A DNA stretch of 40,703 nt from a virus: the IMG/VR virus record IMGVR_UViG_3300010285_000005, one strand, 5' to 3'. Positions 3,353 through 38,335 of the stretch are shown piece by piece. How positions within the stretch are numbered: the first letter of the stretch is position 1; every line of letters starts with the position of its first letter. The position numbers and the translations under genes are program-made. The notes beneath the pieces were generated by a model. The model had not been told where the DNA came from and did no database searches. It worked only from the letters and a program-made list of their open reading frames with translations.

Positions 3353-3529
3353 TTAATAGACCACCGAACCGTCCGAATAATCGGGTTCATACGGCTTCCC
3401 GTCGTCCAGACACTTCCGAATGATCTTGACGATCTGACCATCGTCCAGGTGTCGTAAATGGAAGATCGGAAAGTTTTCGTTGAACCGATCGGCGTATTCG
3501 GTCAATTTTTCGCTTAATGTATCACTCAT
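3353..3529 (-). CDS. Small hypothetical protein (58 aa, below ORF-track cutoff)
   Basis: ATG at 3529 with GAAAGGGTGA RBS overlapping the MuF gene stop. Translation MSDTLSEKLTEYADRFNENFPIFHLRHLDDGQIVKIIRKCLDDGKPYEPDYSDGSVVY. Fills an otherwise empty gap. Confidence 0.5.
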   Translation of the reverse strand: MSDTLSEKLTEYADRFNENFPIFHLRHLDDGQIVKIIRKCLDDGKPYEPDYSDGSVVY

Positions 3530-3533
3530 GGTA

Positions 3534-5432
3534 TCACCCTTTCAGGATTTCTTCAAGCATTTCAAGGAAAATTTTATAAGATTCGGGGAAGTATTTCTTG
3601 ATCGAATCCAGTGATTCAGGGTTCGTCAGCGTCGCTGAAAACATTTCGGCGAAGGCTTCTGTGGGAAGCGTGGTGTCCCGATTCCAGTATGTTTTACCAT
3701 GACCGAATCCACCGTTGACCTTTCCTTTTGTGACACCTTCAATCATATCCGAAATGTCGGATCGTGCCATCTGTGGGATTGCACGGATTTCTTTTTCCAG
3801 TTTGGTGTATGCCATAGACTTTGAATATTTAGGCATACCACCGATCAGCGTTCCGTTCTGTTTATAGAAATTATAATACCAGTCCCCAATATAACCGTTG
3901 TCGTGTAACCATTCGATGTCGTTCCCGTGAACCTTGAAATCTGCTTTTATTTGCGCTGCATAAGCGTCTACACGGTCATTGATTTCTTTTTTCAGGCTGT
4001 CAACGAAAGCCCCGTTCTTGTATGTGTAAGAATAGGGCTGGAAGTTGTAACCGTTGCCGAATTTGACATTCGCAATATAATCGATATTATGACCGAATTC
4101 ATGGAACGTGGTCTGATACGGTGCTGACCAGGATTTCCCGTTTGCGTCGGCACTCACGTCCATTTCAATTCCGGCTGCACCGTGGCAGCACGGGTGACGC
4201 TTGCTTGTCGCACTGACAACACGAAGATCGGATTCAAGCTTGCCCCACACGTCACGAACGACATCGGGGGCTTCGTTCAGCTTTTCATGTAAAGCCAGAT
4301 AATGCTTTTCACCCAGCTTCTGATATACTTCGCTTTTGTCATTTATGGGAAGTTTTGCCTTTAGAATAGCACCCGCATCGACTTCAGTCAAGCCGTCCTT
4401 CGATCCGTCGCTCATGAAGGTCTTTTTCCATTCAGCATATGTCATATTCGACGGCACATAATAGGTCTTGCCATCAGAACCCCGTGCAGCACGTTCCCCG
4501 AAGTTATCATCGAAGAAGGGAATTGTCGTGGTTCTGCACCAGGGGTGAAAGGGCGGTGCTGTGACACCGACTTCATAGTCCTTCATATCCACGACTTTCC
4601 CGTCAAGGCTCTGGCACAGTTTGCTGGTCAGGTTGTCCAATGTGGCGACGATTTCAAAGCGATCCACACCCAGGTCTTTGAAGCAGTCCTTCTGTGCCAG
4701 ACTGCTGAACGCAGCCGATTCAGTCATCACCAGGCGGGCTGACTTCGATTTCGACACATGGAACTGGTGCTGAATGGCCTTAATTGCCCGATCGGGGGGA
4801 TCGCCACGAAGTATGTTCTGCGTAAGCTGCGTCTGGACGGTGTTGACCAGGCTGTCCTTGTCAATCCATACCCGATCCCTGAAAGTCTTCATGTCGTTCG
4901 TCCAGGGCTTCGACAGCACCATATCAAGCTGTTTACTGTTCGGGGTCATCATGTTCCAGCCGACATTCAGACCCCGCTGGATTTCATATGCGGTGTGGGA
5001 ATAGCTGTCTATGTATGTCCGGCGAAGCAGCTTGTCCAGATCGTCCAGCTGGTTTCCATAAAGGGCTTCAATCTGCTGCTGCGCCTGAACCTTCAGGGCT
5101 TCCAGGCGGGTAATGTGCATCTTCGCCGAAGCATTTTCAAGCTGCTTCAGCCACCTTTGATCGATGGCGTTTTCCCGACCATACTTGATGTAGTCTTCGA
5201 CCGTCCACTTGAATTCTTCAAGTTCTTTCGTGTTCAGCAGCCTTCGGGCTTCGGTCATGCTGATCTGATTGTTGTCGGCGAATCGCTGATACCAGGCGTT
5301 GATCTCTTTTTCGATCCTGGCAGAAGCCCGTCTGTATTCCCGTTCAAGGGTTTCAATATAAGCTTCGCCTTTCCTCGCCTGGGCTTCAATCAGGATTTCA
5401 AAGCGTCCACGCCAGTAATCGCTGTTTTTCAT
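3534..5432 (-). CDS. MuF/SPP1 gp7-like head morphogenesis protein fused to a C-terminal anthrax-LF-like (HExxH) metallopeptidase domain
   Basis: The N-terminal ~330 aa sit after the portal, as in the SPP1 gp7/MuF family. The C-terminal ~280 aa carry HEFGHNIDY plus a downstream EAFAEMF, matching the LF/ATLF zinc-ligand pattern HEFGH...E-FAE-F. Confidence 0.7.
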   Translation of the reverse strand: MKNSDYWRGRFEILIEAQARKGEAYIETLEREYRRASARIEKEINAWYQRFADNNQISMTEARRLLNTKELEEFKWTVEDYIKYGRENAIDQRWLKQLENASAKMHITRLEALKVQAQQQIEALYGNQLDDLDKLLRRTYIDSYSHTAYEIQRGLNVGWNMMTPNSKQLDMVLSKPWTNDMKTFRDRVWIDKDSLVNTVQTQLTQNILRGDPPDRAIKAIQHQFHVSKSKSARLVMTESAAFSSLAQKDCFKDLGVDRFEIVATLDNLTSKLCQSLDGKVVDMKDYEVGVTAPPFHPWCRTTTIPFFDDNFGERAARGSDGKTYYVPSNMTYAEWKKTFMSDGSKDGLTEVDAGAILKAKLPINDKSEVYQKLGEKHYLALHEKLNEAPDVVRDVWGKLESDLRVVSATSKRHPCCHGAAGIEMDVSADANGKSWSAPYQTTFHEFGHNIDYIANVKFGNGYNFQPYSYTYKNGAFVDSLKKEINDRVDAYAAQIKADFKVHGNDIEWLHDNGYIGDWYYNFYKQNGTLIGGMPKYSKSMAYTKLEKEIRAIPQMARSDISDMIEGVTKGKVNGGFGHGKTYWNRDTTLPTEAFAEMFSATLTNPESLDSIKKYFPESYKIFLEMLEEILKG

Positions 5433-9024: not shown

Positions 9025-9441
9025 TTATTGGAAATATAGTTCATCGAATTGAACCAGCGCACGTTTGCACAATTCCTGAACCCACTGATAAGAGAACCCC
9101 ATGTCAACAGCGCACCGTTCCCATGTGTAACCGTTTACGAAACGCAGCGTCAGGATCAACCTATAATCGGCATACGGCATCGCATCGATTCGCTGGATAG
9201 CTTCGGCCTGAAGTTCACACAGTTCTTTGATCTGTTTTGAAAGTTCATTTTCAAGATCGACCAGTTTTGCAATACATTCTCCGATCGAATCCTGATTCGC
9301 ACCACCCTCAACGATGTCCTTTGAATAATCTATACAGCCGATGCTGGTGATCTGGCTTCTGATCTGCTCTATTTTTTCAGCTTTCGCTTTCACACTGGCG
9401 TTCAAGCGTCGAATATTCATAAAATAGTCTTTCGCCTTCAT
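9025..9441 (-). CDS. Late transcription regulator, sigma-70 region-4-like (RinA/ArpU/DUF1492 type)
   Basis: C-terminus YRLILTLRFVNGYTWERCAVDMGFSYQWVQELCKRAL resembles a region-4 HTH. Lies directly upstream of terS. ATG at 9441 with GAAAGG. Confidence 0.6.
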   Translation of the reverse strand: MKAKDYFMNIRRLNASVKAKAEKIEQIRSQITSIGCIDYSKDIVEGGANQDSIGECIAKLVDLENELSKQIKELCELQAEAIQRIDAMPYADYRLILTLRFVNGYTWERCAVDMGFSYQWVQELCKRALVQFDELYFQ

Positions 9442-9465
9442 TTTCTCACAACCTTTCACCGATAA

Positions 9466-9640
9466 CCTTGAACCGCTTCAAAGCCTTGATTTTACTGGCT
9501 TTTCAGCGATTTCGGGGGGAAGGTTCAAGGTAGTGTCTATATATTTATTATTTTCTTGTTATATAGATTGAATTTGTATGTAAATCAAGAAAATCTTCGT
9601 ATATAAACAAAACCTTGAACCTTGAACCGTTGCCCCGAAA
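9466..9640. repeat. TTCAAGG/CCTTGAA heptamer cluster with 21-bp inverted repeats flanking an AT-rich promoter region
   Basis: CCTTGAACC at 9466-9474, GGTTCAAGG at 9522-9530, CCTTGAACCTTGAACC at 9613-9628. Arms 9510-9530 (tttcggggggaaggttcaagg) and the reverse complement of 9620-9640 (tttcggggcaacggttcaagg) match at 18 of 21 positions. Confidence 0.8.
9560..9588 (-). promoter_or_regulatory. Candidate sigma-70-type promoter for the late regulator / late operon
   Basis: Minus-sense TTGATT (9588-9583), 17-nt spacer, TATATA (9565-9560). The context is AT-rich, so a chance match is possible. Confidence 0.35.
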
Positions 9641-9682
9641 GCCGTGACGATAGAAGGGTTTGCGACGGTTCAATGTTTGAAT

Positions 9683-9922
9683 TTAACCTTCCACCGACTT
9701 TGAACTTTTGCGAAGAATCCGCTTCATTTCCCTCATTAACCGCTTCAGCTGCTGCTTCGTCAAGGTCACGTCCGGCGTAAATGGGTGAAAGCATCGAAGG
9801 CCAGACATATTCTGCGGGCTGTTTATTTCCAGGACACGAACACCGCTGTCGCTTCGGAAGTTTGTGACTTCACGTCCGTCCAGGATCACGATCAGATTGC
9901 TTGTAATCAGATCGTCCTTCAT
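9683..9922 (-). CDS. Hypothetical protein (79 aa)
   Basis: ATG at 9922 overlaps (ATGA) the stop of the HD gene. The track ORF 9683..10012 extension overlaps the HD gene and is unlikely. Confidence 0.5.
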   Translation of the reverse strand: MKDDLITSNLIVILDGREVTNFRSDSGVRVLEINSPQNMSGLRCFHPFTPDVTLTKQQLKRLMREMKRILRKSSKSVEG

Positions 9923-13265: not shown

Positions 13266-15161
13266 TCAACCCTTCCTTTTCACGAAAATGCGATATTTAA
13301 CGCCCTTAATCTTTTTGTCTTCCACTTCCAGACCATAGCGTTTCTTCATCTGAAGTGTGAAGCTGATGTGTGAATAAACTTCTTTCAGCCCGCCCAGCTG
13401 ACAGAATTCGCAGTAATCTTGATAAACCTTGTTTGTCGGTTGAAGTTCCACGTTTTCGATCCCATAGTCTTCGATGAAGCTGACGATCGAATTGTTTTCC
13501 TTCTCATATTCGACCAGTGCCTGGTCAACCTTTGCGGGTGTCGTGAATTTCCTATTTGCCAGGACACGCTTCAGTCCCCGAATACCCAACAGGATCAGAT
13601 ATTCCACAGCGTCGGGTTCTTGAAGATCGTACTTGATGAATGGCCTGTAACCTGGATCGTCTGGTGTGAACCTGGCTTCAAAGGGAATGATGACCAACCT
13701 TCGGCGAAGTCCACCGCTTTTGTCCTTGATCCTGGGGATCGCATTTGCTGAAAACAGCATCTTTGAATAATTGCAGAACTCAAAGGGATCGAGACCCTTC
13801 CTTTCAGCGTTCACCGCTTCGCCTGTGACCAGCTTTTTGAAGACCGAAGGGTTTGCGATGAATTCTTCGCCGATGTCGTCACCCAGGTTTGCCAGCTTGC
13901 CAGCCAGTTCAGCCGTCTTGAAACGATCCCCCAGTTCCTTCAGGTCAAGCGAAGTGACGTTTTCTTCGCCCAACATGGTCTTGATCATATCGATAAATGT
14001 GGACTTGCCGTTTGCGCCGTCACCCGTCAGAATAAAGGCTTTTCCCAGTTCGTTCTTTCTGAAAAAGCAGTACCCGACACATTCTTCAAGCAGCGCACGA
14101 ATTTCAGGATCGTGACAGGATATTTTGTCCAGGGTTTCATCGACCAGCTTCGCCCCTTCAGTCCCAGCAGCTGCCGGATTGTAATTCCAGGGGATTTTGT
14201 TCGTCAGAATAATGTCGGGGCTGAAGGGCATCAAGGTGTCATTCACGAAGTCATAAAGACCGTTGTTGAAAGCGATCAGGTTCGTGTTCGACTGGTGTTT
14301 GTACTGCGGAACGATCAAAGACAGGTATGACAGAACTTCCTTCCGGCGTGTCTTGCTTAACCCGCTGATATGTCTGATCATCGCAGCTTCGATCTTGTCC
14401 TGGTCTTTCGTATAAATCCCGTTGTCATATATGTGCAGCTGCCCGTTCAGCTTGATTACATGGTCATTGTTCTTCAAGTAGACGGCGAACTTGTCAAACA
14501 GGAACGTGTTGCCCTTCAGGAAGATCGGTTTCTTGAACGCTTCGTCACGAATGATCGTTTCCAGTTCACGACCAGACAGCGGGTCTTTCATGACATAGTT
14601 GTTGATGATCCTGATCGTTTCCCTGGCTTCCTCGATCGTGAAATCTTCCGATTGTAATGTCAGAATGTAGTTGAACAAGGCTTGATTTCGACCGTCGCCA
14701 GCTTCCATGTCCATGAATTCCTGGCTTGTCCTAATGGGAAACAACCACTTTGGAATTGTCTGAATTTCGTCTTCAGGCGTGTCATAAATGACTTCACGTT
14801 CGACGTTGTTGAATTTCAGAATTGCATATGAATTCCGACAGCCCAGCTTGATGTCCGCTGTGATGCAGATCGCCAGTTTTGTGTGTGTTTTACACGTCTT
14901 CAGTCCGTCGTTCTTGAAATAGAAATGCTTGCCCCGTGATGTTTTATAAACCTTGCACTTCAGTTCACGGTCTTGAACGATTTTGAACAGAATTTCGCTT
15001 TGTTCAAAGTCATCAATATCGATCAGAACCGTGTCTTCTGAAAGGATTCCGGCGAATTCGGGAAGATGCTTCACCTGGTCATATGTCTTCAGGTCTGTTC
15101 GGTTCTTGAATTTTTCAGTACATTCTTTGTCTTTTGTGGGGACATATCCACGGAACAGCAC
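13266..15161 (-). CDS. Bifunctional primase-polymerase / D5-P4-type primase-helicase
   Basis: N-terminal prim-pol motifs (VLIDIDD, SRGKHFYF). P-loop FILTGDGANGKSTF is typical of the P4/D5 primase C-terminal NTPase. Confidence 0.8.
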   Translation of the reverse strand: MLFRGYVPTKDKECTEKFKNRTDLKTYDQVKHLPEFAGILSEDTVLIDIDDFEQSEILFKIVQDRELKCKVYKTSRGKHFYFKNDGLKTCKTHTKLAICITADIKLGCRNSYAILKFNNVEREVIYDTPEDEIQTIPKWLFPIRTSQEFMDMEAGDGRNQALFNYILTLQSEDFTIEEARETIRIINNYVMKDPLSGRELETIIRDEAFKKPIFLKGNTFLFDKFAVYLKNNDHVIKLNGQLHIYDNGIYTKDQDKIEAAMIRHISGLSKTRRKEVLSYLSLIVPQYKHQSNTNLIAFNNGLYDFVNDTLMPFSPDIILTNKIPWNYNPAAAGTEGAKLVDETLDKISCHDPEIRALLEECVGYCFFRKNELGKAFILTGDGANGKSTFIDMIKTMLGEENVTSLDLKELGDRFKTAELAGKLANLGDDIGEEFIANPSVFKKLVTGEAVNAERKGLDPFEFCNYSKMLFSANAIPRIKDKSGGLRRRLVIIPFEARFTPDDPGYRPFIKYDLQEPDAVEYLILLGIRGLKRVLANRKFTTPAKVDQALVEYEKENNSIVSFIEDYGIENVELQPTNKVYQDYCEFCQLGGLKEVYSHISFTLQMKKRYGLEVEDKKIKGVKYRIFVKRKG

Positions 15162-17227: not shown

Positions 17228-17692
17228 TTATTCGCCGACTTCGTAAACCTCTATAATCTCAAAGGTGTTGAAGCCCTTGTTTGTCTTGCCGTACTTCAGC
17301 AGATATTCAAGTTTACCGTCAATGGCTTCAAAGATGTCCATGATCAGCTGATCCCACTGTTTATATGATTCAAATTCGACTTCCAGGCCGGAATCCAGGG
17401 AACGAAGGAACTCGTCCACGATGGCGATCTGGAAACGCTGCGTCACGACCTGGTTCATGAAGATCATGCTGCCGTTGTATTCGCCAGCCAGAACCTTGAA
17501 CCAGCAGCTGAACATCGGATTGCCGGAAGACTTCGCCGTGGTCAGTTCCATCTTGTGAATCTTGACTTCATATGTACCGTGGGGAACTTCCTTGAAGTCA
17601 TTTGTGCTGCCGTTCGCTTCGGCTTCTTTCAGTTCTTCTGCCAGTGCCTTCGTGTTGAATTCCTTGTCGAACTTGTCCCAGTTGATGCTCAT
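17228..17692 (-). CDS. DUF669-like protein (phage ssDNA-binding partner of Sak4-type ATPases)
   Basis: VPHGTYEVKIHKMELTTAKSSGNPMFSCWFKVLAGEYNGSMIF matches the DUF669 pattern. ATG at 17692 with GAAAGGTGAGG RBS. Confidence 0.6.
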   Translation of the reverse strand: MSINWDKFDKEFNTKALAEELKEAEANGSTNDFKEVPHGTYEVKIHKMELTTAKSSGNPMFSCWFKVLAGEYNGSMIFMNQVVTQRFQIAIVDEFLRSLDSGLEVEFESYKQWDQLIMDIFEAIDGKLEYLLKYGKTNKGFNTFEIIEVYEVGE

Positions 17693-23786: not shown

Positions 23787-23846
23787 TCGGGGTTGTGACC
23801 GTCTGCCCGCCCGCATTACCCCGCCAGAAGGCGGGTCACTCTGCGT
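23787..23846. repeat. Conserved structured element, copy A (60 nt)
   Basis: tcggggttgtgaccg tctgc cccgcattacc CCGCC-agaa-GGCGG gtcactctgcgt. It ends where the stop codon (23846-23848) of the upstream ORF begins. Confidence 0.8.
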
Positions 23847-24766: not shown

Positions 24767-24822
24767 TCGGGGTTGTGACCGATCCCCCGCATTACCAGGG
24801 CGAAAGCCCTGTCACTCTGCGT
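24767..24822. repeat. Conserved structured element, copy B (56 nt)
   Basis: tcggggttgtgaccg at-c cccgcattacc AGGGC-gaaa-GCCCT gtcactctgcgt. Its gtcac supplies the TGA stop (24812-24814) and the last three codons (N-A-E) of the upstream ORF. Confidence 0.8.
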
Positions 24823-25087: not shown

Positions 25088-25136
25088 TAAGTTTAACCCC
25101 CTGATCTGCATTAGTTCATTTTACTGATCAATTTTT

Positions 25137-25152
25137 GTTCATGATCCTGAAC
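25137..25152. promoter_or_regulatory. Candidate operator palindrome GTTCATGATCCTGAAC at the early-promoter start site
   Basis: Perfect 5-bp half sites GTTCA/TGAAC with a 6-bp spacer. Additional half sites at 25114-25118 and 25240-25244. Confidence 0.45.
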
Positions 25153-25160
25153 CTGATTAC

Positions 25161-25189
25161 ATAATACACTATCTCCACCCCGATGTCAA
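25161..25189 (-). promoter_or_regulatory. Early (lytic) promoter
   Basis: Minus-sense TTGACA (25189-25184), 17-nt spacer, TATTAT (25166-25161). Confidence 0.6.
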
Positions 25190-25228
25190 CACAAAAATAA
25201 AGTTTTCTTAACTTTCATTAAATTTATG

Positions 25229-25257
25229 TTGATTTTTTCTGAACTATAATTTATAAT
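25229..25257 (+). promoter_or_regulatory. Repressor (maintenance) promoter
   Basis: TTGATT (25229-25234), 17-nt spacer, TATAAT (25252-25257). The ATG at 25267 lies about where transcription would start. Confidence 0.5.
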
Positions 25258-25266
25258 GGTAATAAA

Positions 25267-25977
25267 ATGAAATTAAAAGTTATAAACCAACATGAACCCA
25301 CAAGAAACGACAACAGTGAAAGGAAGGATAATCAAAAGACCATGAAAGAATCATTCAAAGACCGTCTTCGTCAGGCCATGACGCTTTGCAACATGAAACA
25401 GGCTGAACTGTCTGAAATCACTGGCATCGGAAAATCAGCAATCAGTCAATATGTTTCCGGCAAATACGAACCAAAACAGACCCCGCTTTATCTTATAGCG
25501 AAAGCCCTCGATGTGAATGAAGCCTGGTTGATGGGCTTTGATGTCCCGATGGAAAAGAATGACACCTATAAAAACGACAAAATTTCTGAAGTTGAAGTAA
25601 AGAAATATCCACTTCTAAAAGCCGTTGACGAAAATCGTACTATATTTGAAGAAGATTCTTTACAAGTCATACTTCCTCACAATTATCTGATCGACGCTGA
25701 TTTTTGTTTAATCGCACCCGACGATAGCATGACGGGGGCGGGTATCAAAAAAGACGACTATGTATATGTGAAAAGTCAGCCGTCAGTGAATAATGGTCAG
25801 ATCGCTGCTATCGTGTGCGGGAAGGAATTGATGCTTCGGCGCATTTTCAAAGAAGGGGACACCTTCATTCTTTCTTCTGAAAACCCCGCATATCCACCGA
25901 AAGTGTTCCCAGCTTCGGGGAAAAACAGCGTCACGATCCTGGGACTTGCAGTCATGACGCAATCGCTAATTAAATAA
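25267..25977 (+). CDS. CI/LexA-like repressor: XRE HTH plus peptidase S24 domain
   Basis: QAELSEITGIGKSAISQYVSG (HTH). S24 motifs APDDSMTGAG (Ser154) and ELMLRRIFKEGDTFILSSENPAYP. An alternative start is ATG 25342 (MKESFKDRL). Confidence 0.8.
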   Translation: MKLKVINQHEPTRNDNSERKDNQKTMKESFKDRLRQAMTLCNMKQAELSEITGIGKSAISQYVSGKYEPKQTPLYLIAKALDVNEAWLMGFDVPMEKNDTYKNDKISEVEVKKYPLLKAVDENRTIFEEDSLQVILPHNYLIDADFCLIAPDDSMTGAGIKKDDYVYVKSQPSVNNGQIAAIVCGKELMLRRIFKEGDTFILSSENPAYPPKVFPASGKNSVTILGLAVMTQSLIK

Positions 25978-25978
25978 C

Positions 25979-25994
25979 GGTTCAAGGTTCAAGG
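25979..25994. repeat. GGTTCAAGGTTCAAGG (two heptamer units), upstream arm of the int promoter cassette
   Basis: Exact reverse complement of CCTTGAACCTTGAACC at 26083-26098. The same 16-mer occurs as CCTTGAACCTTGAACC at 9613-9628. Confidence 0.85.
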
Positions 25995-26036
25995 TTGCTT
26001 CTTATATTTAATATTTTTCATTTTTTTAATTTTTGA

Positions 26037-26066
26037 TTGACAGAAAAAACATGATCAAAGTATAAA
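26037..26066 (+). promoter_or_regulatory. Candidate int promoter
   Basis: TTGACA (26037-26042), 18-nt spacer, TATAAA (26061-26066), within the AT-rich spacer between the inverted heptamer arrays. Confidence 0.4.
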
Positions 26067-26082
26067 ATTCAAGAAATATACA

Positions 26083-26105
26083 CCTTGAACCTTGAACCTT
26101 GAACC
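26083..26105. repeat. Three tandem CCTTGAA heptamers (+CC) between the int promoter and the int RBS
   Basis: ccttgaa ccttgaa ccttgaa cc, read directly from the sequence. Confidence 0.9.
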
Positions 26106-26136: not shown

Positions 26137-27165
26137 GTGCGAAATCCGAATGGATATGGATCGGTTGTGAAGCTGTCCGGCAACAGAAGAAGGCCATATT
26201 GTGCAAGACGAACCATCGGCTTCAATGAAAAAGGACACCCGATATATAAAGCGATCGGGTATTATGCGACCCAGGACGAAGCACTGATCGCCCTGGCACA
26301 GTACAACAAAACGCCGTATGACCTCGACCTGGCTAAAATTACACTGAAAGGGTTGTATGAATTGTTGATGAAACGTGATGATGAAAAGCAACGTGACAAA
26401 TTCTCAAAATCCACTAAAGCTGCTTTGAGGGCATCGTTCAAGAAAAGCGAACACCTTTGGAACGTCCAATATAGGGAAATCAAAGCGTTCCATATGCAAG
26501 AAATTGTCGATGGTTGTGGTTTAAGTTATGCCACACAAGGTCACATAAAGACCTTCTTCACGAAGCTGGACGAACTTGCACTTGAACTGGACATCGTGTC
26601 GAAGACATATTCATCTTTGATCCGTGTCGATCCTGTACCAGAAACATCGAAAAAACCATTCACCGAAGAAGAAATAAAACTGCTGTGGGAACACAAAGAC
26701 GAACCGTTTGTCGATTCAGTCCTGGTGCTTTTATATTCCGGCTGGAGAATCAACGAATTCCTGTCATTGAAAAGGGAAAATGTGAATATTGAAGAAGGCT
26801 GGTTCAAAGGGGGATCGAAGACCCGCAGCGGAAAGGACAGGATCGTCCCAATCCACAGCAAAATCTTCGACATCGTGAAACGTCAGTATGAAAAGGGAAA
26901 CGAATTCTTGTTTGACTATAAAGCCGAAACGGGCAAAAAATCGTTCAATTATTACGACGGCTGGAATCAAGTCATGCAATCCCTGGGAATGGAACACACC
27001 CCGCACGAATGTCGCCACACCTTCCGATCCAGACTGGACGCTGCTGGTGCAAATAAGGTCAGCATCAATCTGATGATGGGTCATAAATCGTCTGATGTCG
27101 GTGAAAGGGTTTATACACACAAAACGATCGAACAGCTGCGTGAAGCCATTGAAATGATAAAATGA
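26137..27165 (+). CDS. int: Tyrosine integrase with AP2-like N-terminal arm-binding domain
   Basis: GTG start after GAAAGGGGGGTGA. N-terminus NGYGSVVKLSGNRRRPYCARRT. C-terminus HECRHTFRS (HxxR) and GERVYTH (Tyr nucleophile). Confidence 0.85.
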   Translation: MRNPNGYGSVVKLSGNRRRPYCARRTIGFNEKGHPIYKAIGYYATQDEALIALAQYNKTPYDLDLAKITLKGLYELLMKRDDEKQRDKFSKSTKAALRASFKKSEHLWNVQYREIKAFHMQEIVDGCGLSYATQGHIKTFFTKLDELALELDIVSKTYSSLIRVDPVPETSKKPFTEEEIKLLWEHKDEPFVDSVLVLLYSGWRINEFLSLKRENVNIEEGWFKGGSKTRSGKDRIVPIHSKIFDIVKRQYEKGNEFLFDYKAETGKKSFNYYDGWNQVMQSLGMEHTPHECRHTFRSRLDAAGANKVSINLMMGHKSSDVGERVYTHKTIEQLREAIEMIK

Positions 27166-29609: not shown

Positions 29610-29834
29610 TTACGCATAGACGATCATCGCCATTTCGACGATGCAGTCTTCCAGGAAAGCGTTGCTTTCCGTCACAGCCTTCAGCTGCGCTTTCAGAAGC
29701 TTGTTTTCATTTATCAGGTTTTCACGTTCCTGCTGTTCGGGCGTTTTGATCAGCGTCCTTGTCCCGTCTTCAAGTTCGACTTCGATATAACCTGGTTTCG
29801 GTTCAAGGGTATAATTTGAAATGGGTCTGTACAC
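29610..29834 (-). CDS. Small tail-region protein with coiled coil (XkdW-position)
   Basis: 74-aa ORF directly after the fibre gene. Confidence 0.45.
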   Translation of the reverse strand: MYRPISNYTLEPKPGYIEVELEDGTRTLIKTPEQQERENLINENKLLKAQLKAVTESNAFLEDCIVEMAMIVYA

Positions 29835-31669: not shown

Positions 31670-32736
31670 TACGAAGCCACCACCGTTCCACGAATGGGAA
31701 TTTCATCAGCCCCCAGGACTAAATTCGTCGCCGATCCGTTCAATTTTGTTTCCATCACATCGACGATTCCAGGAACATCAAGCAGCCTGTTTTCCAGTTG
31801 ACTGATTCGCACGACGACAGAATCCTGATCTTGCCATGTCGCAGATAATTCCTTGAAGTATGCGTCGATTGCCCCATGAACCGCAGACTGAACCGTGACC
31901 CAGTTCCACCCGCTTTGATAGGTGATGTTTAGTTCGATGTCCACTGGGGTTGCAGCGACCCCCGTCACCGTGACCACATGACCGATCGGTGCAAGGCCGA
32001 CACCCTGTCCGGCGTTCACCGTCGGATCGATCGCCGTCTGTACCGCATCGATCAGTGTGGAAGACGGAACGCTGTGCGTGGAATCGATGATCACCAGCTT
32101 CACCGTCCCGCCACCGTTCCAGGCCGGATATACTTTGACCCCGCCGACACCCGCCATGCTGCCGACCTTCTGTTTATAATCGGCGATGTTCCCGCCGAAA
32201 GCCTGGGAAGAAAAGCTGTTGAAATATCGCTGTCGAAGGGCTTCGGTGTCTTCTTCATCTTCGCCAGGGATCAGCACGTCCGTCAGTTCCGCACTGGTCA
32301 GCCCGTTTATAAACTGGATCGGAAGCAGCGTTCCCGAATCCCCATTTCCTACTGACCCAGCCGTTTCACATTCCAGTTTGAAGACCCCGTTTGAAATTTT
32401 TTCGATTACGGTGTAATTCAAAAGATTCAGGCTGAACCTTGAACCGATCGGAACGTCGATGTTAAATTCACCTTTGCGGATCGCCTTCGTCGCTTTCTTG
32501 ACGTTTATGCCACGTTCAGCAGCCCGCTTGATTAAATATTCCCTGCTTGCCGTGTCCGCAAAGGTTTCATTCAGAATCGTGTCAAGTTGTATGTACATAT
32601 TCTGAAGTTCGACCGCAGCGGGGGCAAGTGCTGTATAAATCAGCGATCCTTCCCTGGTGTCGATGTTCGGATTTGCAGCCGTCACCCTGTCCAGCATACG
32701 CTGAAGAATGGTTTCAAAAGTTATCGATTCAAACAT
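31669..32736 (-). CDS. Baseplate J-like protein (XkdT-like)
   Basis: 355 aa. N-terminus FESITFETILQRMLDRV...NIDTREGSLIYTALAPAA. Confidence 0.75.
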   Translation of the reverse strand: MFESITFETILQRMLDRVTAANPNIDTREGSLIYTALAPAAVELQNMYIQLDTILNETFADTASREYLIKRAAERGINVKKATKAIRKGEFNIDVPIGSRFSLNLLNYTVIEKISNGVFKLECETAGSVGNGDSGTLLPIQFINGLTSAELTDVLIPGEDEEDTEALRQRYFNSFSSQAFGGNIADYKQKVGSMAGVGGVKVYPAWNGGGTVKLVIIDSTHSVPSSTLIDAVQTAIDPTVNAGQGVGLAPIGHVVTVTGVAATPVDIELNITYQSGWNWVTVQSAVHGAIDAYFKELSATWQDQDSVVVRISQLENRLLDVPGIVDVMETKLNGSATNLVLGADEIPIRGTVVAS

Positions 32737-35242: not shown

Positions 35243-37167
35243 CAGGCCACCCCTTCCGCACTGGTTTCAAGGATTTCAAGGAAGTCTTTGTTCCACTTGT
35301 TCATCACACCGTCAATATCCAGTTCGGAATTGATGGTGTTGTTGTTCGTCTGTTCGATATGGATTTCAGCCGTCGTGAATCTGTTGATCGTTTCACGTTC
35401 GGCAATATCCCGCAGATACTGAAGGTTGTCTTCCATGATGTCCATCGAATCAGCCAGCTTCGCCGTGTTCGCAGCCGTTTCAGCGGAAAATCGTGCCGTG
35501 TCTTCAGCTGCGTCGTTCTGCTGGGCTGCTGCTCTCGCTGCGTCGATTTCTGCCTGTCGTGCTTGTGCGTTTGCAGCTGCTTCGGCCTTCATCGTCGCCA
35601 GTTTGCTGTCCCTTTCCTGGGCTGCTGCTGCGATGTCGGCTTCATACTGTGCAATTGCAGCCTTCCCAGCCTGTTTCGCTGCTTCGTTTTCAGCTGCTGC
35701 CGTCGCTGCGAAAGTGACTTGTCCAATTAGATCGATGTTGACACCAGGAATCTTGTTCAGCAGTCCGATGAACTTGTTGATGATGTCGATTGCACCGTTG
35801 ATCAGGTTCTGAAGAATTGTCAGAACTCCGACCTTCATGTCGCCCATGAAAGACGTGATCGCAAAACCAGCCTTCATCAAGGCCAGCTTCATCTTGTCCC
35901 ACAGATCGCAGACGAAGTAAACGCCAGTAAAGAAGGCGATCTTCACCCAGTCCCACGCTTTCAGGATCGCATCGACCACGATCAGCCACGCAACACGAAG
36001 ACCGCCAACGCTGTGTACCCATTTATAAATCATTCCGATGACCACACCGATCGCCACAGCGATCCACAGAATCGGGTTCGACATAAGCGAAGCAATCAAC
36101 GCCCGATTCGCTGCGACCTGAAGCCAGGTGACGGCTGTCTGGATTGTGGTCATCAGCGTGTAAAGTGCCACCGCAGCAGCCAGGCCATAGAAGATCGGTT
36201 CAAGGGTTGACCAGTTGTCGTATATCCACTGTGCGCCTGTTCCGATCGCCTGGATCACGGGCTGGAACGTCTGAAGCAGCGTGTTCGTTATGATCGTTCC
36301 GACCTGGTGAAATGTCATCGGCATGGCTTTGAATTTCTCATTCGTTTCATCAGCTGCTGCGAACATTGCGTTCTTTATAACTTCAGCCGAAAGCTGACCT
36401 TCAGCAGCCATGTCACGAATCTTTTCAACCCCGACACCCAGGTAATTTGCGACGTTTTCAAGGATCGGCTGTGCGTTGCTCATTACAGCGTTCAAGTCCT
36501 GACCACGAAGCACACCGCTTGCCAGTGCCTGTGTCAGATTGTACATGGTTGATTCAATACCGCTTGCATCTGTACCAGCAATAACGAAGGTTTTGTTCAG
36601 CAATTCGGCAAACGCAATCAGTTCGTCGTTTGACGAAAACGCCCTTTTCGCTTGCATACCAAGCTTTGACACTATGTCTGCCGTCGTCTGATACGATGCA
36701 CGGGATCGCTGTGCAGATTTGAAAATTTTATCCTGAAGTTCTGCTGTCGTCTGAAGCCCGTCATTTATTAGGTTCAGACGTGCTGTTGTCAACGTCATGT
36801 CATCAGCCAGGTTCTTGATTGCGTTTAACCCAAAAGCAAAACCCAGCGTCGCTGCAAGGTTCTTCGCAACACCCAACACACCAGACATCGAATGTTGCGC
36901 CTGACTGAATTTTTTGTTTGCTTGTTCCTGCTGTTCCTTTATGCGACGAATTTCGTTTTCAAGGAATTCCATGTCAGCGTTCAGCCTGATTATTTCGTTC
37001 CTGGCTTTCTGGATCGCACTGACATCGACGGCGTTCGCTGCTGCTTCATCGATAGCTTCAAAGCTTTGAATGACTGTCTGCAAAGCCTGATTCATGTTCT
37101 TCATCGGCCTGGACACGCCATCAAAGATTTGAATTGCAGTTCGCAGCGTTCCCATGTAAATGATCAC
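35242..37167 (-). CDS. Tail tape measure protein (TP901-type core)
   Basis: 641 aa with a coiled coil, TM-like central segments and an Ala/Gln-rich C-terminal half. The start may be ATG 37155. Confidence 0.8.
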   Translation of the reverse strand: MIIYMGTLRTAIQIFDGVSRPMKNMNQALQTVIQSFEAIDEAAANAVDVSAIQKARNEIIRLNADMEFLENEIRRIKEQQEQANKKFSQAQHSMSGVLGVAKNLAATLGFAFGLNAIKNLADDMTLTTARLNLINDGLQTTAELQDKIFKSAQRSRASYQTTADIVSKLGMQAKRAFSSNDELIAFAELLNKTFVIAGTDASGIESTMYNLTQALASGVLRGQDLNAVMSNAQPILENVANYLGVGVEKIRDMAAEGQLSAEVIKNAMFAAADETNEKFKAMPMTFHQVGTIITNTLLQTFQPVIQAIGTGAQWIYDNWSTLEPIFYGLAAAVALYTLMTTIQTAVTWLQVAANRALIASLMSNPILWIAVAIGVVIGMIYKWVHSVGGLRVAWLIVVDAILKAWDWVKIAFFTGVYFVCDLWDKMKLALMKAGFAITSFMGDMKVGVLTILQNLINGAIDIINKFIGLLNKIPGVNIDLIGQVTFAATAAAENEAAKQAGKAAIAQYEADIAAAAQERDSKLATMKAEAAANAQARQAEIDAARAAAQQNDAAEDTARFSAETAANTAKLADSMDIMEDNLQYLRDIAERETINRFTTAEIHIEQTNNNTINSELDIDGVMNKWNKDFLEILETSAEGVA

Positions 37168-37852: not shown

Positions 37853-38335
37853 TTATACCATGCCGGAAAGATTTGTGAATTCTTCGGGAAGCTCGAAATC
37901 CTCAAAGGTAAAGTCCATTTCTTCGTCCAGGTATTCGCCGTCAGCGTCGAACTTCGCCAGAACACCGCCGTCCATGTTGCAATCCTTCAGAATCACCGTC
38001 TGTCTGCCGACGCTGGACGTGGGGTCTTCGTTCGTGACCTGAATGTCGAAATAAATGTCTTCACCAGTTTCCTTGAACCGCTTCAGAAGCTTCCTGAAGA
38101 TGCTGGTGTTGTAATGGAAAGTTGCCGAACCAGTGCCTTCCCAGCCTGTGGACTTGTTACCCTTGCCCGTCTTTCCCAGGACAGGGACTTTCGCCTTCGT
38201 CTTGTCGAACTTCGCTTCCAGGTTGATCGCCTGCATGAAGTTGTAGCGTGTGCCTTCGATGGTCACATAACATTCAGCCAGGGAAGCACTGATCGCATCT
38301 TTAGCGTTCATGATGATTCTGTCAGCCATTTTCAT
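37853..38335 (-). CDS. Tail tube protein (XkdM-like)
   Basis: 160 aa, immediately after the sheath gene. Similar to the XkdM/phage-like element tube family by recall. Confidence 0.75.
   Translation of the reverse strand: MKMADRIIMNAKDAISASLAECYVTIEGTRYNFMQAINLEAKFDKTKAKVPVLGKTGKGNKSTGWEGTGSATFHYNTSIFRKLLKRFKETGEDIYFDIQVTNEDPTSSVGRQTVILKDCNMDGGVLAKFDADGEYLDEEMDFTFEDFELPEEFTNLSGMV

Follow-up and report, generated by a model that had tools for sequence, protein, structure and literature searches.

Two iteron cassettes flanking the early region of an uncultured temperate phage are probably origin modules of the SaPI/P4 type

Opposed iteron arrays at two gene junctions

In the 40,703 nt of IMG/VR virus record IMGVR_UViG_3300010285_000005, a temperate tailed-phage genome (this whole stretch is called the window), short repeats, termed iterons, are arranged in two cassettes, each with arrays in opposite orientation around an AT-rich spacer. 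The late-side cassette is located in front of the gene of a late regulator, the int-side cassette in front of that of a tyrosine integrase (Int; Table 1); they occupy two co-directional junctions, early to late and cI to int, which are ~16 kb apart. Judged from sequence comparison, 9464–9677 and 25979–26105 are probably two copies of an iteron origin module of the type known from Staphylococcus aureus pathogenicity islands (SaPIs) and satellite phage P4, which would be read by the phage's own D5-like primase-helicase.

Table 1. Coordinates of the cassettes, their parts and the principal genes of the window.
Feature	Position	Strand	Remarks
terS, terL, portal	8932-5429	-	
Late regulator (DUF1492/Sigma70_r4_2-like)	9025-9459	-	both Pfam matches below curated cut-off
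Late-side iteron cassette, ~214-bp quasi-palindrome	9464-9677	-	between the HD phosphohydrolase gene/79-aa ORF and the late regulator gene
Outer iteron GGTTCAAGG (9466-9474) and degenerate GGTGAAAGG (9452-9460)	9452-9474	-	repeat family D1; adjoins the ribosome-binding site
Local imperfect hairpin GCTGAAAAGCC-N11-GGCTTTGAAGC	9475-9507	-	between inner and outer iterons; in the predicted fold
Inner iteron across the spacer, opposite orientation	9522-9530	+	degenerate second copy follows
AT-rich spacer, 82 nt	9531-9612	.	candidate DNA-unwinding region; TTGATT-17-TATATA on minus strand
Inner iteron pair GGTTCAAGGTTCAAGG	9613-9628	-	two heptads, 7-bp period
Outer iteron, one mismatch	9667-9675	+	GGTTCAATG on plus strand, CATTGAACC on minus strand
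HD-type phosphohydrolase	10482-9919	-	lower end of the early/replication operon
D5-like primase-helicase (Pri-Rep)	13266-15161	-	Pfam D5_N, DUF5906; putative iteron-binding initiator
C-terminal stretch DKKIKGVKYRIF, residues 615-626	13284-13319	-	putative specificity determinant
cI-like repressor (HTH_3 + Peptidase_S24)	25267-25977	+	ends 1 nt before the int-side cassette
Int-side iteron cassette	25979-26105	+	2 iterons (25979-25994), 88-nt AT-rich spacer (25995-26082), 3 inverted iterons (26083-26105)
Tyrosine integrase	26137-27165	+	directly downstream of the int-side cassette

Read along the minus strand, the late-side cassette opens with the one-mismatch iteron CATTGAACC, followed after 38 nt by the 16-mer GGTTCAAGGTTCAAGG, the spacer, the inverted iteron CCTTGAACC, 47 nt with a small imperfect hairpin, and GGTTCAAGG; the degenerate copy GGTGAAAGG comes last, before a ribosome-binding site and the late regulator gene. 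Exact copies of the 9-mer GGTTCAAGG are located at 9466–9474 (−), 9522–9530 (+), 9613–9621 (−) and 9620–9628 (−), of which the last two overlap to form GGTTCAAGGTTCAAGG; the same 16-mer opens the int-side cassette (25979–25994, plus strand). In total, the late side has four exact copies, one with one mismatch and one degenerate copy; around its 82 nt the inner iterons number two versus one (plus a degenerate copy), with opposed outer copies beyond. On the int side, all five iterons are exact, two and three of them being opposed around 88 nt. The two spacers have diverged, and the 9-mers are identical at both cassettes.

The original prediction, made from the letters of the window alone, had described the arrays as a special promoter cassette, and much of its description stands: the copies of GGTTCAAGG and the 16-mer common with the int locus are exact, the spacers measure 82 nt (9531–9612) and 88 nt (25995–26082), the extended arms match at 18 of 21 positions in the quoted part, and two loci do have one cassette in common. 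Overlooked had been the outer iteron at 9667–9675, the degenerate copy GGTGAAAGG, and the common centre, near 9571–9575, of the nested inverted repeats I1, I2, I3 and I7. Because of this common centre, 9464–9677 is taken as one ~214-bp quasi-palindrome; its 29-nt arms 9503–9531 and 9619–9647 are 79% complementary.

In the window, GGTTCAAGG occurs exactly 13 times, versus ~0.3 expected from length alone (2 × 40703/4^9); with up to one mismatch there are 34 matches, versus 10.5 ± 2.8 expected, a number reached in none of 100 shuffles. Five single exact copies lie outside the cassettes, at 17494–17502 (−; inside the DUF669 gene), 29800–29808 (+), 32437–32445 (−), 36197–36205 (+) and 38071–38079 (−). 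Additional lone heptamers are found in relatives too, for example six in locus L018, all in one orientation; such single heptamers may be weak initiator sites or due to chance.

The cassette in related phages and prophages

The DNA of the window gave no similarity match among isolated phages, and searches there with its terminase and Int returned mosaic or distant relatives only, phiCT9441A having the terminase alone in common. A scan of viral contigs for the exact pattern gave 23 loci with proteins ~40–60% identical to those of the window; the exact 9-mer itself is constant across phages whose proteins are only ~40–55% identical. These loci occupy two positions, namely cI-like gene/cassette/(small ORFs)/int and HD phosphohydrolase/cassette/late regulator/terS (ORF, open reading frame), and two of the contigs carry both. 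The check in related phages named with the original prediction thus had a clear outcome, the cassette being kept at both positions. Homologues of the late regulator come after the cassette in relatives; a single-protein search of viral contigs with the late regulator found nothing.

The full architecture in relatives consists of outer iterons, the small hairpin, an inner pair, an AT-rich stretch of 83–106 nt, the mirrored half and a ribosome-binding site. There are 7–13 iterons per cassette, the inner ones being 2 and 2, with 1–3 outer ones on the side matching 9667–9675. Measured from GTTCAAG to CTTGAAC in 24 distinct GGTTCAA-type cassettes, the spacers span 83–106 nt and all have less than 25% GC. 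At either end of the spacer the order is iteron-N3-6-CTTCTTATAT, an approximate two-fold symmetry which would be more in keeping with a symmetric loading site than with a promoter that points one way.

Two auxiliary motifs were read at window positions 25997–26007 and in the cassettes of L003, L194, L305, L385 and L386: one is CTTCTTATAT, located inward of the inner iterons by a few nt, the other a hairpin-like element, (C)AAAGCCTTGAT or GAAAxCCC..GGGxTTTC, between inner and outer iterons. Both are kept across repeat types and hosts, and elements comparable to the latter are present also in cassettes with other repeat types and in Paenibacillus and Staphylococcus elements; the motifs may be host-factor or unwinding elements.

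Relatives and integrated prophages likewise have the int-side cassette between cI and the int operon; in the prophages it is intact, as in L025 (a 345-kb contig of a Chryseomicrobium isolate) and in contigs of Clostridia metagenome-assembled genomes (MAGs); the prophage-bearing contigs measure 93–345 kb. Among genome assemblies, type-A cassettes come from Clostridia MAGs and one Bacillales isolate. A cassette left intact by integration cannot be attP, and it is exceedingly improbable that the arrays are arm-type sites of the integrase (attP or an Int autoregulatory site) or inverted arms around an invertible promoter. The two and three inverted short repeats next to int do resemble a P/P' arm layout, and an N-terminal domain of the arm-binding type can be read in Int by eye (Pfam detects the catalytic domain only), but the second cassette is far from int and the Int N-termini hardly differ between repeat types. 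For an invertible promoter speak the inverted repeats which bracket a promoter-like spacer; however, near-identical loci (L003/5/17; L006/7/10/23; window/L019) all have the same spacer orientation, and 82–88 bp is short for site-specific inversion.

The genome-wide scan for the pattern in bacteria was largely misleading, most of its matches being (GGTTCAA)n hairpin arrays of GC-rich MAGs, unrelated to the cassettes. These long intergenic arrays, (GGTTCAA)n ... (TTGAACC)n (L024–L143), occur in Acidobacteriota, Planctomycetota, Desulfobacterota, Verrucomicrobiota and other GC-rich environmental bacteria, are often mixed with GGTTCAG or GGTGCAA and have no phage context; they appear to be a separate phenomenon. 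A literature search for the repeat sequence gave primers and noise only.

Repeat units and the tail of the primase-helicase

Relatives were also fetched by protein instead of by repeat, with the HTH_3+HTH_17 protein (A1), the HD protein (A2) and the primase-helicase (A3) as queries. Their cassettes follow the same plan with different units, namely GTAACA (with several sub-forms), GTGACA, CTACAC, ATGCTA and CCGTAG, and further GGAACAGAT, (A)GAACAGAT, CCACAGAT, CTTCAACAT, ATTCAAGTT, CCGTAACC, GGTAACGG and GCGGAACA. In every contig where both cassettes were available, nine of nine (eight of GGTTCAA type, one of GTAACA type), the int-side and the late-side cassette belong to the same repeat family. 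Since the unit is the same within a genome and differs between lineages, and since the spacers have diverged, the repeats imply a phage-encoded, trans-acting, sequence-specific reader. That a single factor serves both loci, as had been proposed, agrees with this concordance; the factor itself would be the primase-helicase, not a regulator of transcription or recombination.

The DNA-binding proteins of the phage were considered one by one as readers. The N-terminal domain of Int is rejected for its near-constancy across repeat types, DUF739 and the HTH_3+HTH_17 protein because they are 91% and 88% identical, respectively, between L168 (GGTTCAA) and L164 (GTAACA). The late regulators of the GGTTCAA type alone come from two families without homology to each other, and their putative recognition helices differ greatly among phages of one type; cI is of several families within one type, and its switch uses AAGTTAAG-like boxes both in the window and in L164. 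Nearest-neighbour concordance over all gene families was underpowered, as the repeat type largely follows phylogeny.

It is accordingly very improbable that the heptamers are additional operators of the cI-like repressor (or Cro) which silence int and the late regulator in the lysogen, although scattered operators have models in the C1 operators of P1 and the stoperators of mycobacteriophage L5. The position of cI, 1 nt before the int-side cassette, the behaviour of the repeat types, which act like specificity classes, and four GTTCA pentamers in the cI-cro region would fit such a role. The genetic switch itself (25112–25266), however, does not contain GGTTCAAGG, even with one mismatch. It has two good divergent promoters, with promoter-like sites TTGACA-17-TATTAT (25189–25161, minus) and TTGATT-17-TATAAT (25229–25257, plus), an AAGTT-N5-AACTT dyad at 25200–25214, and its own AAGTTAAG-like boxes, which are common to phages of both repeat types (three in the L164 switch). 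Moreover, repressors of several unrelated families occur with one and the same repeat type, and the gene preceding the cassette sometimes encodes no HTH protein.

The protein which does follow the repeat is the D5-like primase-helicase. Its last ~15 residues, after a conserved helix (...SNIEFSKQV...), fall into classes matching the units: the tail DKKIxGKKxRIF (in the window, EDKKIKGVKYRIF) goes with GGTTCAAG in 21 of 22 distinct loci including the window, xKWIRN with GGAACAGAT in 22 of 23, DKWIS/T with CTTCAACAT (10 of 10 for DKWIS) and VVKLNGQ with CCGTAACC in 8 of 8; likewise, DKWLN is paired with ATTCAAGTT, A(K/R)YI(K/R)G with (A)GAACAGAT, SRRIKG with CCACAGAT, VKRFRGG with GTAACAGAT and xKR(I/V/L)G(N/S)K with GTAACA. 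For 79 of 82 distinct loci, the unit is correctly predicted by the class of the tail; 10,000 permutations gave 34.6 on average and at most 44, in a test which ignores relatedness and therefore overstates independence, loci of one class being kin.

Variation is concentrated in this tail. Among 31 closely related distinct sequences (~85–100% identical to the query by tblastn), the mean column entropy is 1.1–1.3 bits over the last 24 alignment columns, while the other 15-column blocks of the first 240 columns do not exceed 0.63 bits and, in all but two, stay below 0.3. Five of the 31 phages, compared pairwise, are collinear over ~16 kb with ~70–89% nucleotide identity per aligned block, and no replaced block lies between the end of the primase-helicase gene and the cassette; the change of unit is therefore not a block swap. 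From this co-variation we infer that the repeat reader would be the C-terminal DNA-binding domain of the primase-helicase.

The same data bear on the idea that the repeats act as RNA. Transcripts from read-through or a local start would then have alternative long stems, which might be cut by RNase III, stabilise the 5' end or attenuate, and thereby govern how the downstream gene is processed or translated. Both regions fold far better than shuffled controls (late side, −81.3 kcal/mol, z = −6.6; int side, z = −6.2), there is a perfect 18-bp stem at the int locus, and complementarity is kept while the repeat sequence differs between lineages. The 10-bp stem which had been predicted in the 5' untranslated region is real in so far as 9465–9474 and 9522–9531 pair perfectly, but the predicted minimum-energy fold does not use it. 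Strong folding, however, follows from the inverted repeats and is by itself no proof of RNA function. No Rfam family is found at either cassette; partner arrays are often out of register (9–10-bp versus 7-bp period); the 9-mer, frozen across distant phages amid diverged spacers, points to a trans-acting reader; and pure self-complementarity would need no unit that co-varies with a protein tail. A function as RNA is thus quite improbable. Antitermination RNAs of the nut/put kind were considered and dropped as well, and cruciform-only models cannot account for the protein co-variation.

Relation to known origins and genomic surroundings

In SaPIs, the Rep protein recognises penta- or hexanucleotide iterons by a winged helix in its C-terminal domain and thereby initiates replication; the origin, located just downstream of rep, has 6–12 iterons and an AT-rich centre with at least two opposed iterons per side (PMC9371898). 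The cassette architecture equals this published type of origin; of the special promoter cassette originally proposed, the shared array is real, and its architecture is that of a replication origin. The phage primase-helicase matches PriRep5 of SaPI5 (PDB 7OLA) with E = 2.7e-36 (residues 238–597 to 381–735), and a profile of its C-terminal domain (A4, last 150 residues) matches PriRep5 628–747 with E = 1.2e-13, covering the helices; there is also a weak match of this domain to the RFX5 winged helix (E = 0.31), and with 20.3 bits the Pox_D5 match of the protein narrowly misses the curated cut-off of 21.4 bits. As in SaPIs and other phage-inducible chromosomal islands (PICIs; SaPI1 Rep1, SaPI5 PriRep5; PMC9371898), the initiator would be an SF3 helicase, here fused to a primase as in SaPI5, with a homologous C-terminal domain; the iterons, of 5–7 bp and ~5–12 per site, are opposed on both sides of a central AT-rich region of ~80–90 bp, and initiator and iterons come in element-specific matched classes.

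Two cultured relatives place the cassette at the SaPI position. In Paenibacillus phage Wanderer (L385), with a Pri-Rep 50% identical to that of the window, a GTAACAGAT cassette lies in a 257-bp gap directly after the primase gene; in the Staphylococcus element PI-Sepi-HH2 (Pri-Rep 43% identical), a CATAAGACA cassette is likewise directly after the gene. Both have CTTCTTATAT by the inner iterons and a AAAGCCTTGAT-type element between inner and outer arrays. The cassette therefore belongs to this initiator family, and in these two genomes it has the position of SaPI origins. In several viral contigs the gap between the primase-helicase gene and the cassette is 0.6–2 kb.

SaPI origins were reportedly described by Ubeda et al. 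in 2007 and 2012, as cited in PMC9371898, and the alpha protein of P4 with its ori and crr is said to have been described by Ziegelin and Lanka in 1995, a paper cited in PMC7145576. Alpha, too, unites primase, SF3 helicase and a C-terminal origin-binding domain in a single polypeptide, and P4 has one short repeat in two separate cis regions, between which the early/replication operon lies and of which one is on the int side. The P4 iteron is the octamer TGTTCACC, which resembles GGTTCAA. Unlike the second cassette of the window, crr is a pair of 120-bp direct repeats and no iteron/AT-rich/iteron palindrome; host and phage type differ, and the likeness to alpha is drawn here from architecture, not from sequence comparison.

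More than one cluster of initiator-binding repeats per replicon is familiar from iteron plasmids (P1 incA, F incC, R6K alpha/beta/gamma), where the additional clusters allow looping, handcuffing or titration and where initiator binding near promoters is regulatory. Their initiators, however, are winged-helix dimers of the Rep_3/RepA type with 17–22-bp iterons, in contrast to an SF3 primase-helicase with 6–9-bp units. The omega repressor operators of inc18 plasmids are contiguous 7-bp heptads, direct and inverted, at promoters, whereas the arrays of the window flank the AT-rich region rather than cover it and co-variation points to the primase-helicase; no ribbon-helix-helix or other small protein that tracks the repeat was found, and omega-type operators were rejected for this reason. 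(For iteron plasmids in general, see the review PMC4980987.)

What supports the assignment as origin is that the repeats exist and are conserved at both positions, that the protein is homologous to PriRep5 and that its tail co-varies with the unit; from this we infer binding, melting and origin firing. The GGTTCAA(GG) repeats would be bound by the C-terminal winged-helix domain of the primase-helicase, which would assemble on both sides and melt the AT-rich centre as described for SaPI Rep/PriRep origins; with one site at either end of the early region, from cI to the replication genes, the layout would recall that of P4, where the alpha operon lies between ori and crr. As to the duplication, both copies may be origins; alternatively, one of them may enhance firing like crr of P4, serve for titration or handcuffing like the additional clusters of iteron plasmids, or be a regulator, and binding of the initiator may also gate int and the late regulator.

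Several points weigh against this assignment. Two copies per genome are unusual for SaPI-type replicons, and neither is next to the initiator gene: they lie 3.6 kb downstream and 10.8 kb upstream of it, and no intergenic gap follows its end at 13266. The gene-proximal inner side of the late-side cassette is a single exact iteron, and GC skew, which follows the transcription strand, is uninformative on origins. As to the reader, most backbone genes track the repeat type as well, and the mapping of tail to unit is many-to-one with exceptions: in L227, a late cassette of GTTCAAG type goes with a different tail; the tail of L001 is different too, and its int-side cassette is of GGTTCAA type, with no late-side cassette within its locus; Wanderer and L305 have different tails and both use GTAACAGAT. 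Since the PriRep5 alignment ends before the variable tail, and since a single-sequence AlphaFold model of the C-terminal 132 residues (pLDDT, the model's own confidence score, 44) was unusable and not used, it can only be supposed that the tail would be the beta-hairpin "wing" of the winged-helix domain.

To these points must be added that both copies end 20–40 nt before a start codon and contain −35/−10-like hexamers, which leads to the alternative of transcriptional modules, that is, a promoter of the late regulator or int bracketed by operator arrays, where one phage factor, possibly the primase-helicase as repressor or activator and possibly by looping, would time both genes together. Each cassette is directly upstream of its gene, TTGATT-17-TATATA and TTGACA-18-TATAAA (int side) can be read in the spacers, and TATA(A/T)A-like boxes recur in relatives ~8–14 nt before the gene-proximal iterons; the upstream genes are not set apart by any intrinsic terminator, and initiators that bind iterons and double as promoter regulators are established for iteron plasmids. 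Yet neither promoter is called by a consensus scan. The predicted TTGATT-17-TATATA is indeed present on the minus strand, but it is weak; relatives have no conserved −35, and owing to the symmetric AT-rich ends equally good boxes face away from the gene. In Wanderer and PI-Sepi-HH2 the cassette is downstream of pri-rep and before unrelated genes, and no dedicated DNA-binding regulator co-varies with the unit. Modules mainly for the control of transcription are thus rather unlikely; a regulatory side-effect of the cassettes on int and the late regulator is possible. Mimicry of the −35 of a host extracytoplasmic function (ECF) sigma factor was rejected, as the −10 partner is missing and phage-specific classes argue against it.

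On the simplest view, transcripts starting at the cI and early promoters would read through into int and the late regulator. A more speculative thought, to which we give little credence, is that the replication initiator acts as a timer: its assembly at the cI-int and early-late junctions would couple excision/integration and late entry to replication, with origin firing, or looping across the 16-kb early region, gating read-through or local promoters. If so, the expression of both int and the late regulator would be tied to the onset of DNA replication.

Returning to the SaPI/P4-type origin, the kind of element is already known (SaPI/PICI origins, P4 ori/crr), and what is new is its presence in a large uncultured family of temperate Firmicutes phages, its duplication at the ends of the early region, the nested outer arrays and the series of tails with their iterons. 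In comparison with SaPIs and PICIs, the carrier is a full temperate phage, and there are extra outer arrays, with a conserved small hairpin between them and the inner ones; self-loading primase-helicases with short iterons in the SaPI/P4 style would thus be extended from satellites to full phages, and a shared-promoter story gives way to a testable origin assignment, for which Wanderer and PI-Sepi-HH2 are relatives in culture. The at least ten natural tail/repeat pairs in closely related proteins are material for studying how the C-terminal domain reads DNA and could supply orthogonal origin/initiator pairs for engineering, and the duplication of the module could reveal a coupling of replication and gene expression.

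The genes around the cassettes are those of a temperate phage. The early/replication operon (minus strand) extends from a cro-like gene (25111) down to the HD-type phosphohydrolase gene and encodes, besides the primase-helicase, the HTH_3+HTH_17 protein, an SNF2 helicase, VRR-NUC, AAA_24+PD-(D/E)XK and DUF669 proteins, MazG, ThyX and a radical SAM protein; the latter was recognised by PHROGs, which otherwise assigned the small early ORFs to families of unknown function only. For the late regulator, the ORF list gives a GTG start at 9459, within the degenerate iteron; the true start is likely ATG 9441, which has GAAAGG 10 nt before it and would give 138 aa.

A 79-aa ORF at 9683–9922 (minus strand) overlaps the stop codon of the HD phosphohydrolase gene (ATGA) and ends just before the late-side cassette; Pfam and PHROGs gave no match for it, and L227 has a similar ORF at the corresponding place. 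Two Type-P5 twister ribozymes (Rfam RF02684; 60 and 55.5 bits, above the gathering score) are located in intergenic gaps of the early operon, at 24767–24821 and 23787–23845 (both minus), one of them just downstream of the cro-like gene. Wanderer also has, at 36240–36421 in the gap upstream of its primase operon, clustered TGAAGG-N5-CCTTCA palindromes which are not part of the downstream GTAACAGAT cassette and resemble an operator bound by a dimeric regulator. Finally, L156 contains at 3353–3705, just downstream of the HTH_3+HTH_17 gene, a tandem array with a 15-bp period and ~23 copies of TTGGAACAGCGGTAA (89% matches), which is absent from the window and present also in L148, L157, L158, L166, L170 and L172.

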